Source of the DNA: Escherichia coli
GTDB taxonomy: Bacteria; Pseudomonadota; Gammaproteobacteria; Enterobacterales; Enterobacteriaceae
Assembly: GCF_003018115.1 (NCBI RefSeq)
Contig: NZ_CP027457.1
Reading direction: 5' to 3' (one strand)
DNA: 64,000 bases
The position numbers were made by a program. This document shows positions 47,801-53,800 of the stretch, one piece after another (the stretch's first letter is position 1; each line of letters starts with the position of its first letter).

Positions 47801-50800
47801 AAGATAATCATTGCAGCATAAAGGATAATTGCTCCTGTATAGTCGGTTATTTTATAACCAATGCATCTTAAAAAGGTTGAAAGCACAATGAAAGAAATTG
47901 TATGAATCAAATATATAGAATACGAAGCATCCCCAAGCTTCATAAGTGCTTTGTGAACAAATGATTTTTCATTGAAAGAAATATTTATTGCGCCAAGAAC
48001 ACATAAGAGAGATGGCACCCCTACGTATATAATACGCTCATCACCAACACCCCATACATTAGTCCCAACAATTAAAAATAGACCTACAGCAAAACATAAA
48101 ACTGATAGTTTTATGTTTTGAAGAATCTTTTTCTGATAAACATAGCCGCATATCATACCGAATATGAATTCAAGATGTATCGGGCTGAAAAATAATCTTT
48201 GGATAAAGTTCAAGCTGCCCCAGTTATAAAACAAGAATGTATAAGTACAGAATAGGACGCCAGTGGCAACTCTTCCATATTTACCAAAAATACAGCACAT
48301 TAATGCTAGCGACATATAGAAGTAAACTTCAAAATTTAGTGTCCAACTTATTGCATAAATGGTTTCTGCCTTCCATGATTCAGATGGGTAAAACAAAAAC
48401 ATAGCGCTTGTTACAAACTTCCTGAAAGCATCATCAGGAATCTTGCCAGTTACCATTAAGGCTATAGCATAAAGCAAAAGAGACATCCAGAATGCTGGAG
48501 CTACGCGAATTAATCTTTTAATTATAAAATCACCAATACCACGATCGCTCCTCATGCACTTTCCGATAGTTATGTACATAACCATTCCAGAAATGACGAA
48601 AAATATATCAACTCCGTACTTACCGAACTGTACGAACCCCTGATCAGGGAGAATAAGTCGCGTAGATGGAACGAAGTGGTTTACTGCTACCTTGGCATGG
48701 ATGAACACTACCATCAAGGCCGCAATGCCTCGTAAATACTGAAGCCCAATAATCATGAGGTTCTCCTAAAATGACATCCATGTCATTTTAGCGACTAAAC
48801 CACGATGGTAAAGATAATCATAACAACTATTCAACAGAGTAGTTTTGTGTTTAGTAAGCAACAAACGTTCCTGGAGATCCAGTGGCAGTGCATCGCAACC
48901 TGAATGGTGCCGTGGTTGCATTCACCAATACAAAATCCTCCCCCTTTCGCCAATAACCACCAGTTGGTATACCCTGAATCCCATTTTGACTATAACCTAA
49001 GTTGTACGTAATTTCTCTTAGGTATGGACCAATGTTTGTTTGCCAAGTTCCTGTTTCCACCCATACATTACTGTGTCGGAGTGATCTCCCCTGAAATGAA
49101 GCATTTGGTTGAGGAGTTACACCATCAACCATTAGACCAATAAATTTCATGGATCGAAGATAGCTAGGAGCTGAAGGTGAAACAGGAAATTCAAATGGCA
49201 CAGTTATTGTCGTTGTCGATAGATAATTGTTTCTGTCCCAAAATTTTATATTGATATCACCAAGATTAAACCTGTTGACATTTCTTATGTCAGCAATTCT
49301 AGAATCCATTAAAGATGGATTGTAAACAAACAAAAGATCACAATCCCCAATTGTTAAATTGTTCAAGGCTCCTTTATCACACGATAGAAACCTTACTCCC
49401 TCTATTTCTCCTGTTATTCTTCCTATAGACACCTCTTCTGCTAGAGTATTGGCGGACCTAGCATTCATAACAGACTTTGGAGTGTTACCATCTGTACCAC
49501 GAAATATATGTAAATGCTCAATATTTATTCTTGAACAATCAGCATAACTAACCGCACCAAGCCCGGTTCCGCCAACTTCAGCATATAGTATTGTCATGTT
49601 TGCATCTGTTGCACCAGCGATAGCTTCTTCACTTCCATCATAGTGGAAATAATCTATATGTATGCGACCACCTCCGTATATGCCATTGTCTGCACAATTT
49701 TTTAGATACATTCTGTTTACTGTTACTTCGATATCCTGCGCTGAATTAAGTATAGAACAACAGTCTACGGCAGATATTGAATTAATAATGTTATTTTTCG
49801 ACCCGTCAAAAAAATGCAGCAGTTGAGGCATAGAAGCATTGCTGTTACCAGTATTTACACAATTGTATCCTCTTATGACCCCAACAACATTATTGGAACC
49901 CTTGAACTGTATTCCAATTACACCAGTACCTGAACCAGATGGCGCGTAAAGCCCAGTTATATACACTGATTTAAAGGTATTGTTACTACCAGATACCCTG
50001 ATAGGCATGCAAGCTGTTTCATTGGCATCAATATTTAGATTAAAATATCCTTTTTCTTTAGTTATATTTACAATATTTCCATAAGTTGGTGATGTTGTAA
50101 TTAACTTGCCGTCATTAATACAATTAATTGAACGGGCTACAGAGGTTGTTCCTGTAAGTTTAATTGTAATCCCGTCTATCAGCACAGGACACCCAGGATA
50201 AGACATTGCAGAGTTGAATAGTTCTGTTTGGTCAACATCGCAACTATCTACAAGGCCTAAAGATTGTGCCTTAACTTCAGTTTGATATACAATAGCCTTA
50301 AGTCCATTTTCTATATCATGAATATTTGAATTATCTTGTATGCCTGAGCTAGATATTATATATACACAACTGCCACCGTCACCTTTTGAAAAAAAACCCC
50401 TCGTCTCAACAATATCGCCTTCCTTTAAATTCATATCTGATTTCATATCAGATACGGTGTCATATTTTCGACCATAATGTGATGAAAGACCTCCAATAAT
50501 AGCATATCCATTGCTACTTGATAAATCTACCCTTAGCCGGTCAGGGTCATACTTCAGCACATTAGGAAAATAGAACTGCTGTGCACCATACGCATCATAA
50601 ACAGCCATAGAATGGCCTTGCACGGTAACGAATTTGGCAATCTGTCCGTTATATACAGGGTAACCAGCAGCGTTAATGATGATTGGTTGAGAAACAGGAA
50701 CGTGAGAACCGTCTTCATTCTCTACATAAACCTGAATCTGGTTTTCAGGATTTACAGGGTCAGTGTCAATTTTACCGATATAAATTTTGCCATTGGCAAC

Positions 50801-53800
50801 CGCTTTAAAAGAACGCGCCATAGTGAAGAGTTGCGAAGGCATGCTTACCACAACATTTGCGGTGATATCTGACATTTCATTGCTCCAGACGAATGATATG
50901 ATGCAACCATGATGTGATTGCATACCGAAATGGTACTATTGAGTATTTATCCAGTAGGTTACGATGCCATTCCACCCAACTGGTGAGGCATCAAGGATGT
51001 ACAGCAAATACGACGAGGCGCAGTTTCACTTGAGACTTCCGCATGAACTCCACGCGAAAATTAAGCAGCGTGCGAAGATGAATAACAGGTCGCTGAACTC
51101 AGAGATAATTGCAGCGATTGAAGAATCATTGGCTAAACAAAGCTCTGCACCAGTTTACATTGACGATGCAGAGCGTATGGCAGAACAACAATCCGATATA
51201 GTTAAGAAAATGGTTTTTGAAACGCTTAAGACCATGTATAGCAATAATAAAAAGGAAACATAGAAATCTAGTTTCCGACTAAAATGGCATTGCCTTCATG
51301 ATATCCTGTGAAAAACTAAGGAGAGTTAACCATATGAAAAAATCACTGTTAATTATCCCACTTCTGCTGGTTGGATGCGCAAAAGTAAGTGACTATCAAG
51401 CAAGTTGCGAACAACGCTATCAAAAGCTTAGCGATATGGCTAATTGCCTTGATGCCAGTGTGAAGAACGACTCACGCATGGCATCAGCACCAACACCTAA
51501 GCTGTATGTCCTTGCTGCAAAGGTGCTCGGGCAAGGTGTCGATGAAGGAAAGATAAGTGACGCACAGGCAAGACTTGAGCTTCAGAATCTTTATGTTCAA
51601 TTACAAAGCCAAGAACAAGCCCAACAAATAGCACAAAGCCAAGCATTCCAGCAGGCTTTATTGAATTATCAGGCTGTAAACACAATGCAAGCGATCGAGC
51701 AAAAAGCGCGCCAGCCTGTTATAACTCAACCTTACCCAACACGCGTTGACACATATACAAACTGCAATTCAGGATTTGGAAACACGGTAACATGCAACAG
51801 TAGCAGTAACATCAGATAACAATCAGCAAAGGTATCGCCTATGCAGAGGAATACGATAAACCTCGCGTTCTACATATTTGGTTTTTGCACGTTCCTGGTG
51901 TTTGAAAGGCTATTCTGACAACGAATCAGACTTAGCACCCTGCGTCAGTGCATTAATCGCTTTTTGCGCTTGCTGCATGGCTTTCTCAAACGCTGTCGAT
52001 CCGCGTGGGGTGTTTGCCATTCGGAGCATTGCATTTCTGAATGGCTCGCTCTCATAGGCGCGAGTAAGAAGTCCGTAGCTTACTGCTGCGCCAGTTGTCG
52101 CCGGGTTCATTGCCGTACCATACCCAATAATGAACGGGATAGTTTGCTGCCCTGTTGGTGTTGTTACTGCCGCTTTTGCAGCCTGCTGCGTGGATTGCAG
52201 ATAGTTTTTTAATCCTTTCAGATAAGCAGCGTCCTGCCCCTTAAATGTGATGCCAGTATGGTTTTGCAGGATGTTAAGCTGCCGAAGGAACTGGTCAGGG
52301 GATCCGCCAGATTTCTCCATCGCCTTTCCAATGATGCCATTGCGCATTTGCGCCCTGCCAACACGACCAACTGAGTTATACAGCGTCTTAATTTCCGATT
52401 TGTTCTTGCTGAATAGCATGTTGTTGACAACTTCCGGCGTCAGGTCGCCTTTCATGAGAACATTCTTCAGCCTGGTATTCTTTAGTTTCGCCGCTTCGTC
52501 AGCGTAGACGGCATTGGCCTGCTGATATTTACGGAGAGTATCGTTGCCAAGATTCTGACCAATGGCACCATTGATATCGTCTGTCATTGCCTTGTAAACG
52601 CGCTGAATGGCAGCATCGGAACGGTTTGGTAACACTGGTCGTTCCCCCTTCACGTCCATTCTGAACTGGCTGCGCAGATCGCTTAATTGCTTCAAATCCA
52701 GATTTACCGGACCATCAGGACCAGCATTGCGAACAAGCTCATCACGATAGGACTGAAGTTTTGAAATAGTCTCGTTATCGGCGACCTTACCAAGCTTCTG
52801 CAGGTTAGATATTTCTGTATCAATCTGCTGAATTGCTCGAGCAGGCTGGATATTGACTCCCGCCATTGCATTCTGAACCTGCTCAAGACGGTTCCCTGCA
52901 GCACGACGAATTCCTGATGTTTTCGCTTTAAGGCTGTCAATAACAACAGCTGGATCATACTCACCGAATTTATCAGCAAATCTCTGCACCAACTGGCTTC
53001 TCGCTTCCTGTTGCGTTGCTCTCATTCCGCTTGTGCCAGCCAGAGGGATATTTTCTGCTGTAGTCTGCGCCATTTTTCCGACGCGGGAAGTTGGTTGTAA
53101 CAGGTCTGTGGTGTGCAGAGGAACTCCTTCACGCTCTGCAAATCTGATAGCCTGCTGCGCTTCTGGCGCAATAGCACCGCGAACACCACGATAAGCAGCA
53201 CCTAATCCACGTCCGGCAGCGTTAATAGCACCTCCAGCCAGCACACCAACGCCTAAATCGGTAGCGAGTGCTTCCGCATCATCTTTCGCACTATTTGCAG
53301 CAAGTGATCCAACTGCGTTTTCTGCTAGAAGGCGAGTTGCCCCCTGAGCAATTCGACCAGCAAGTGTTGGTGCCTGTACCGCCGCTCTCTCAACGCCAGC
53401 AGGAGTGAGGTAAGGCAATGCTTCAGCAAATACCCTTCCCTCTGTCGTTTGTGGAGTCAGCGCACCTTGCTGAAGGCCAAAGTCCTGCTCTAATCCCTGC
53501 GTTGTTACTCGTGGTGCTGGTTGATATGTACCATCGCCAATGCCGAGTTTACCGCCAGCCCAAGCCGCCGCGCTTGTTACAGCATCGGCAACTGATGCAG
53601 GTATGTTTGCCACGTTCACGCCAGCCTGCACCAGTCCACGACCAGTCTCTTTTACTGCTTCACCAAGATCAGACATAAATCCACTTTGCTGTGGTTGTTG
53701 CTGTGCTACTGGTTGTTGTGTCTCCACTGGCTGCACAGATGGCAATGGATAGGCAGCATAGAAAGCTTGCTTAGCCTGCTCTGCATTTTCTCCGGCTTGC

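Follow-up and report, generated by a model that had tools for sequence, protein, structure and literature searches.

Which surface polysaccharide is recognised by a tailspike that joins a familiar particle anchor to a receptor domain unlike any characterised one? The question is raised by a 64,000-nucleotide stretch of Escherichia coli DNA (RefSeq assembly GCF_003018115.1, contig NZ_CP027457.1; the whole stretch is called the window here), in which a tailspike gene lies at 48851-50875. Tailspike receptor domains set the host range of phages, and they serve as serotyping reagents, for pyocin and phage retargeting and as glycan-cutting tools. The gene probably (at a probability of about 0.7) specifies the tailspike of a Lederbergvirus-type prophage, similar to P22 and Sf6, at ybhB, in which a glycan-cleaving receptor domain and an acetylating AT3 acyltransferase form one cassette. 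This reading builds on the homology of the anchor, the position in the genome, the fold class, the structure of the cassette and the selective constraint, all demonstrated below. The tailspike gene and its parts are as follows.

48851..50875, minus strand: tailspike gene, 674 amino acids plus stop, from the open reading frame (ORF) list and translation; identical to WP_052429233.1
50537..50875, minus strand: head-binding (particle-anchoring) domain of the Sf6/P22 type, codons 1-113, from Pfam PF09008 and identity to Sf6 and P22
50195..50536, minus strand: linker and N-terminal cap subdomain of mixed strands and helices, codons 114-227, from the AlphaFold2 secondary structure
49046..50194, minus strand: predicted right-handed parallel beta-helix, the presumed glycan-binding and glycan-cleaving body, codons 228-610
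48854..49045, minus strand: small C-terminal beta domain, codons 611-674, the most conserved part of the family, from invariant alignment columns

The tailspike and its anchor

The ORF at 48851-50875 is a genuine, intact tailspike gene with the standard swap between anchor and receptor domain. Its longest mechanical ORF opens at an in-frame ATG at 50923, upstream of 50875. The start was placed at the ATG at 50875 because the N-termini of Sf6 gp14 and P22 gp9 align collinearly from there, and because the product is then exactly identical to the 674-residue RefSeq protein. A GGAG lies 9 nucleotides upstream of this start. Residues 1-113 cover the whole Head_binding model PF09008 (E 1.9e-67), and the first 110 residues are 91.8% identical to Sf6 gp14 and 75.5% identical to P22 gp9, so the N-terminus is nearer to Sf6 than to P22. 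The first-pass annotation, made from the sequence alone, had given the ORF and its coordinates exactly, and the anchor match is far beyond chance. It had also called the anchor P22-type; the head-binding domain is indeed present, but it is Sf6-like rather than P22-like. The gene is the last of the virion module, past the ejection genes gp7, gp20 and gp16 and the mnt region, as expected for a Lederbergvirus-type tailspike with a PF09008 anchor.

Similarity to Sf6 and P22 vanishes past residue 113. The claim that the remaining 560 or so residues do not resemble the P22 endorhamnosidase was borne out more broadly, since they show no sequence relation to P22, Sf6, HK620 or any other solved tailspike. 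In phmmer searches of the PDB the tailspike aligned over residues 1-126 only; the best match of the receptor domain (residues 114-674) had an E-value of 0.025, which is at chance level, and a profile search gave no match to it. Receptor-domain homology to the P22 and Sf6 endorhamnosidases or to the HK620 endo-N-acetylglucosaminidase was found by neither method. Residues 114-674 also matched no Pfam family, including the P22-tailspike C-terminal families, and no PHROG. Two apparent leads were discarded. The PHROG matches of the full tailspike, including the 'colanic acid degradation' family phrog_8280, are due to the anchor, as the receptor domain alone matches none, and the PDB profile search with the homologue alignment matched only the N-terminal adaptors of homologues.

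The expected richness in Asn, Gly, Ser and Ile was confirmed: G makes up 10.7% of residues 114-674, S 9.3%, I 8.9% and N 8.6%, and these four are the commonest. The anchor has a G+C content of 0.43, the receptor domain one of 0.38 and the acyltransferase gene one of 0.35; the remainder of the prophage and the host stand at 0.51. The predicted domain swap was seen directly when the gene was compared with its allele in Res13-Lact-PEB17-18, an E. coli genome labelled O20:H12. The synonymous divergence (dS) was 0.27 in the anchor versus 0.02 in the receptor domain, so that a recombination joint can be placed close to codon 113.

The receptor domain is rare. Its DNA was found in one of 5,426 complete E. 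coli genomes, the O20:H12 genome just named. Among 50,697 phage records no similar protein was found by tblastn except one of Vibrio phage 1.236.O, at 30% identity, and a single related locus, 82% identical, came from IMG/VR. The annotation would have been overturned by a characterised tailspike nearly identical to this one, but searches of the PDB, the phage records and BFVD gave none. Identical copies of the protein are present in several E. coli assemblies, at no fewer than three sites (ybhB, dacD and another). These results indicate that the beta-helix family of the receptor domain is rare and uncharacterised, and they leave unchanged how tailspikes are understood to work.

P22 gp9, an endorhamnosidase, shares with the window tailspike the head-binding family (75%), the place past the ejection-protein and immI genes, and the plan of anchor, beta-helix and C-terminal domain, but no similarity in the receptor domain. 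The Sf6 receptor part is also a beta-helix; past residue 113 or so, however, the Sf6 endorhamnosidase has no detectable sequence similarity to the window receptor domain.

Fold and family of the receptor domain

Two AlphaFold2 models of residues 113-674 were made. Model 1, from 9 sequences, reached a predicted local distance difference test score (pLDDT) of 78.6, and model 2, from 64 homologues, reached a pLDDT of 92.6 and a predicted template modelling score of 0.89. The predicted structure has a mixed cap at about 135-227, a long run of beta-strands at about 228-610 and a C-terminal beta domain at 611-674. The C-terminal domain was of low confidence with 9 sequences and had a pLDDT of about 95 with 64. 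The fold searches with Foldseek and against BFVD were made with model 1, which matched right-handed parallel beta-helices of the pectate-lyase-like superfamily; the neighbours were tailspike depolymerases and polysaccharide lyases. The receptor domain is thus confidently predicted to be a right-handed beta-helix of the tailspike type, as had been anticipated, and to have no close characterised tailspike. In BFVD the only good matches were two unnamed proteins (template modelling (TM) score 0.70, 22-23% identity). One of them fits a protein of a Nahant-collection Vibrio phage by its length and UniProt accession series, in agreement with the lone tblastn match in Vibrio phage 1.236.O.

The first-pass annotation had proposed a Foldseek comparison with known tailspikes. 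Among solved structures the closest was the K1 capsule lyase of phage NTUH-K2044-K1-1 (7w1c), which ranked top (E 6e-6). This lyase and K64-1 S2-4 (9k4a) have TM scores of 0.37-0.43, sequence identities of 8-11% and other N-terminal adaptors. The match to the Sf6 tailspike (7ukj) was weak (E 6e-3). The O-antigen hydrolases HK620 tailspike and CBA120 TSP2 are 11-14% identical in the receptor domain and show no sequence-level homology, and their specificities (O18A1 and O157) are unrelated. From the ranking one could read the receptor domain as a lyase of capsule or exopolysaccharide that acts by beta-elimination on a uronic-acid polymer, with the acyltransferase acetylating that same polymer. 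The structural-neighbour ranking is the sole point in favour of this alternative, and it seems unlikely. The catalytic triad Tyr311/His373/Arg397 of the K1 lyase is not recognisable in the window family, and the 64-sequence family alignment contains no invariant His that would correspond to His373, although Y400 and R473 are conserved.

To determine the extent of the family, HMMER was run exhaustively over 1.84 billion representatives. It returned 607 proteins at E <= 1e-3, of which 107 reached <= 1e-10 and 32 reached <= 1e-30, and only four were above 33% identity. A separate group of library matches, at 35-42% identity, spans only the cap stretch (codons 114-227). In that stretch the family has the consensus FGAxGDGxxDDTxAIQ, and the generic cap PF12708 is matched by 25 of the 64 family members. 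The N-terminal adaptors of the family are diverse and include Tail_spike_N, the endosialidase N-extension, the T7 tail-fibre N-terminus and Mtd_N.

Conservation within the beta-helix centres on the motifs NTGxxNxSxPQ (341-351) and DNGxY (396-400) and on E417, R473 and D547. In the 64-sequence alignment N341, G343, N346, S348, P350, D396, N397, G398, Y400, E417, R473 and D547 are invariant or conserved to at least 90%. D396 and E417 are the sole near-invariant acidic residues in the helix. As judged from this conservation, the D396/E417 pair would suit a hydrolase, with Y400, R473 and the NTGxxNxSxPQ loop as further candidate residues; alternatively, Y400 and R473 could serve a lyase. The C-terminal domain has its own conserved cluster (G616, P617, P637, W642, G645 and G666). 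Residues 611-674 show the top conservation of the family, down to 20% overall identity, with the motifs GYWxxG, PFRxRC and GTPGT, and are weakly shared (24%) with a tailspike of an Enterobacter-type prophage. These 64 residues may have a role in trimerisation or folding, or form a second binding site.

The same motifs can be read as purely structural, as an Asn ladder and PbH1-type turns in a domain that binds its glycan without depolymerase activity. Consistent with such a binder, GSNN, NTGN, DNG, GTGLG and DKG recur at a spacing of about one coil, like the turns of a structural beta-helix repeat. Against it, E417, R473, Y400 and D396 are invariant or nearly so across sequences that are only 20-30% identical, which is beyond what the fold needs, and the close structural neighbours among phage proteins are all enzymes. 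In addition, a short-tailed phage must pass a long O-antigen layer, and such passage is established for P22, Sf6 and HK620. A domain that binds without cleaving is therefore rather improbable, and a glycan-cleaving receptor domain is preferred.

Among 19 near-identical E. coli alleles, substitutions recurred at D446N, A475P/T/G, T555E, T558N and E562D (window about 49188-49540). The ratio of nonsynonymous to synonymous change (dN/dS) of the receptor domain was 0.4 between close alleles versus 0.19 between genera. The repeated changes at a few tailspike positions may reflect fine-tuned binding.

The tailspike-acyltransferase cassette

The gene directly downstream of the tailspike encodes an acyltransferase, and the two lie within a block whose limits could be read from comparison with other prophages.

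47692..48756, minus strand: AT3-only acyltransferase, 354 amino acids, PF01757 over the full model (E 2.9e-30)
47476..50889, minus strand: extent of the mobile cassette, common to P22-like prophages at dacD; homology stops at both ends
47722..50220, minus strand: block 86.3% identical in DNA to a Citrobacter amalonaticus prophage by blastn, covering the tailspike from about codon 219 to the stop, the spacer and nearly all of the acyltransferase gene
47453..47533, plus strand: 3' remnant of an IntS-like integrase gene, 26 codons plus stop, IYNHAQYLDKRREMMQWWADWFDRKV, matching the 3' end of intS in strain B7A

The acyltransferase covers positions 2-325 of the 326 in PF01757, has no SGNH domain and matches PHROG 3333 (O-acetyltransferase, E 2.5e-49). 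It thus has the features of the Oac type, namely a full-length AT3 protein lacking an SGNH domain and encoded in a prophage beside a tailspike gene and an attachment site. In the E. coli assemblies examined, the same 354-residue AT3 gene always lies 3' of the exact tailspike protein. Its relatives at 64-68% identity adjoin gtrABC and another tailspike gene in other prophages, a neighbourhood that supports a role in O-antigen modification. P22 itself has gtrABC, not an acyltransferase gene, downstream of its tailspike.

Tailspike and acyltransferase genes travel as a pair. The stretch 50889-47476 matches the prophage at the dacD site at 99.9% identity and the O20:H12 genome at 98.2%, and no homology is found past these borders. 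The closest real homologue of the receptor domain, the uncharacterised WP_061070411.1 of Citrobacter amalonaticus (82% identity over the receptor domain), is likewise followed by an acyltransferase (88% identical) within one continuous DNA block. It differs in its surroundings, because the tailspike there carries a Tail_spike_N (PF18668) adaptor and the prophage is siphovirus-like, with a long tape-measure gene. Between Citrobacter and the window dS was 0.70 and 0.77 for the tailspike receptor domain and the acyltransferase gene, and dN/dS was 0.19 and 0.11, respectively. The equal dS and low dN/dS indicate that the two genes diverged together under purifying selection. The comparisons at the DNA level thus show that tailspike and acyltransferase genes move as one cassette across prophages, integration sites, tail morphotypes and genera, a clean example of receptor-recognition and receptor-modification genes inherited as one block across phage types. 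The IntS remnant accompanies the cassette at ybhB as well as at dacD and matches the end of an intS gene beside a P22-like tailspike gene at argW in strain B7A. It shows that the cassette once resided in an argW-type phage such as that of B7A.

The closest characterised counterpart of this arrangement is Sf6, with gp14 and oac. Both loci have the order tailspike, AT3-only O-acetyltransferase, attachment site or integrase. They differ in integration site, lambda attB for the window prophage and argW for Sf6, and Sf6 is not among the tblastn matches of the window acyltransferase at E 1e-5. Sf6 Oac is the precedent for seroconversion by O-acetylation (PMC9558356), and the receptor domains of Lederbergvirus tailspikes are modular and cluster by O serogroup (PMC10408124).

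By homology with P22 and Sf6, six tailspike trimers would dock on the tail hub through the N-terminal head-binding domain. The cap, beta-helix and C-terminal domain would bind and cleave a host surface polysaccharide, which fold and context suggest is most probably the O antigen, and the cleavage would let the virion reach the outer membrane. The AT3 acyltransferase, expressed in the lysogen, would most likely O-acetylate the same glycan. By analogy with Sf6 Oac, the acetylated lysogen would no longer be a substrate of the tailspike, so that seroconversion and protection against superinfection would follow.

Local features of the cassette were also observed. A near-perfect palindrome of 31 bp in the acyltransferase gene (48090-48120) has 13-bp arms and, at 48103-48107, a 5-nucleotide loop (TGATA). 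The O20:H12 allele carries the exact reverse complement of this loop, TATCA, and so encodes S218I; the change looks like a hairpin template-switch mutation. Between the tailspike stop codon and the ribosome-binding site of the acyltransferase gene lies an AT-rich inverted repeat, AAAATGACAT-CC-ATGTCATTTT (48768-48789). In a promoter and terminator scan the counts were at chance level, and a sigma-70-like site at 48812-48785 on the minus strand, upstream of the acyltransferase gene, carries no weight. The repeat and this site could separate late tailspike transcription from lysogenic acyltransferase transcription.

Putative receptor and prophage setting

A first lead to the receptor came from the O20:H12 genome, which carries wzx and wzy of the O20/O137 family between galF and gnd. 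An O20/O137 wzy was found in just 5 of the 5,426 complete E. coli genomes, so the probability that receptor domain and wzy fall in the same genome by chance is about 0.001. The proposed correlation with host serotype was thus obtained in part: one carrier genome is labelled O20:H12 and has an O20/O137 wzy, and the correlation extends to that single genome. The O antigen of the O20/O137-type wzx/wzy cluster is the best receptor lead. A literature search gave no paper linking O20 with a tailspike. The O20 repeat unit, a two-residue backbone with ribofuranose, was reported not to fit the O20 galF-gnd cluster (PMC7685785), and the identity of the O20 and O137 clusters is disputed (PMC4732683), which makes the chemistry of the putative receptor uncertain. 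The tailspike adds a rare, uncharacterised specificity, maybe tied to this poorly understood O-antigen group.

Several observations weigh against a glycan-cleaving tailspike paired with an acetyltransferase for the same O antigen. The best structural neighbours, lyases of acidic capsules (K1, K5) and an alginate epimerase, include no O-antigen hydrolase. The proposed catalytic or binding residues are candidates drawn from family conservation, and the family members are biochemically uncharacterised. Remoter homologues of the receptor domain (64%, 48% and 46% identity) occur in other tail contexts with no adjacent acyltransferase gene. The serogroup link comes from one genome, and there the acyltransferase gene, otherwise 98% identical, is a pseudogene: CAA (Gln186) is changed to TAA at the position of window 48199-48201, a change that RefSeq flags as 'internal stop'. 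In the window the gene is intact. In its backbone the strain of the window is nearest to O169:H41 strains, and only one prophage end, about 17 kb, lies within the window.

A bolder proposal goes further than the evidence for the cassette itself and is put forward tentatively. Recognition and masking of one glycan may be joined in a single 'recognise and mask' cassette, swapped as one DNA block among podovirus-type, siphovirus-type and possibly other prophages across Escherichia and Citrobacter. The receptor domain would then represent a depolymerase family that has so far escaped recognition and numbers some 100 clusters at 50% identity, marked by NTGxxNxSxPQ, DNGxY and the C-terminal domain, with the polysaccharide displayed by strains with the O20/O137 cluster as its substrate. 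If so, the enzyme could be used to probe why the O20 structure as published and the gene cluster do not match.

The prophage around the cassette begins just past ybhB and reads as follows at its host junction and upstream of the tailspike gene.

47230..47244, minus strand: lambda attachment core GCTTTTTTATACTAA, host-prophage junction just past ybhB, read from the sequence; homology to a differently flanked locus begins there
50964..51263, plus strand: Mnt/Arc-type repressor gene of the immI region, divergent, upstream of the tailspike gene (Pfam Arc E 1.2e-14, Repressor_Mnt E 2.5e-11)
51334..51819, plus strand: predicted lipoprotein of 161 amino acids with a MKKSLLIIPLLLVGC lipobox, PHROG 6067 (function unknown), between the mnt-like gene and gp16

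The E. coli chromosome occupies positions 1-47139 and ends in bioA and ybhB, and the host flank of the attachment core matches E. coli bioA-ybhB. The backbone is 99.6-100% identical to O169:H41 enterotoxigenic E. coli genomes. Assignment of the window strain to O169:H41 was nevertheless dropped, as those genomes bear a different prophage at the ybhB site and lack the tailspike. From the attachment core to the end of the window the sequence is a P22-like prophage, in the order acyltransferase, tailspike, mnt-like repressor, lipoprotein gene, gp16, gp20, gp7, needle, gp10, gp4, coat, scaffold and portal. The virion module is 96% identical to that of coliphage IME10 over 78% of a 13-kb query. At ybhB many E. 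coli genomes carry P22-like prophages in which this anchor is joined to other receptor domains, sometimes followed by GtrA genes.

This setting also bears on whether the tailspike gene might be a relic without current function in a defective prophage. Such decay could be suspected from the short part of the prophage seen, with the lysis, replication and integrase genes outside the window, from the dead integrase fragment in the cassette and from the acyltransferase pseudogene in one other strain. But every virion ORF in the window has its full length, the dN/dS of the receptor domain is 0.19-0.4, and many assemblies contain identical or near-identical full-length copies of the tailspike, which occupy three or more sites. 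A relic is thus very improbable, and a functional tailspike remains the preferred explanation.

The lipoprotein gene is kept at the same place in other E. coli P22-like prophages. P22 has sieA at this position, and the 161-residue lipoprotein may be a superinfection exclusion factor. In a metagenome scaffold the same cassette and lambda core are joined to a different flank with primase- and DnaB-like genes, which may represent a different insertion or the attP form. In the host chromosome, an island of low G+C content (0.31-0.35) lies at about 18000-22000 of the window, with two large ORFs at 17856-19868 (minus strand) and 20173-21858 (plus strand). E. coli annotations over a 25-kb stretch with this island include the type III secretion system effector EspX2 and a hypothetical protein.

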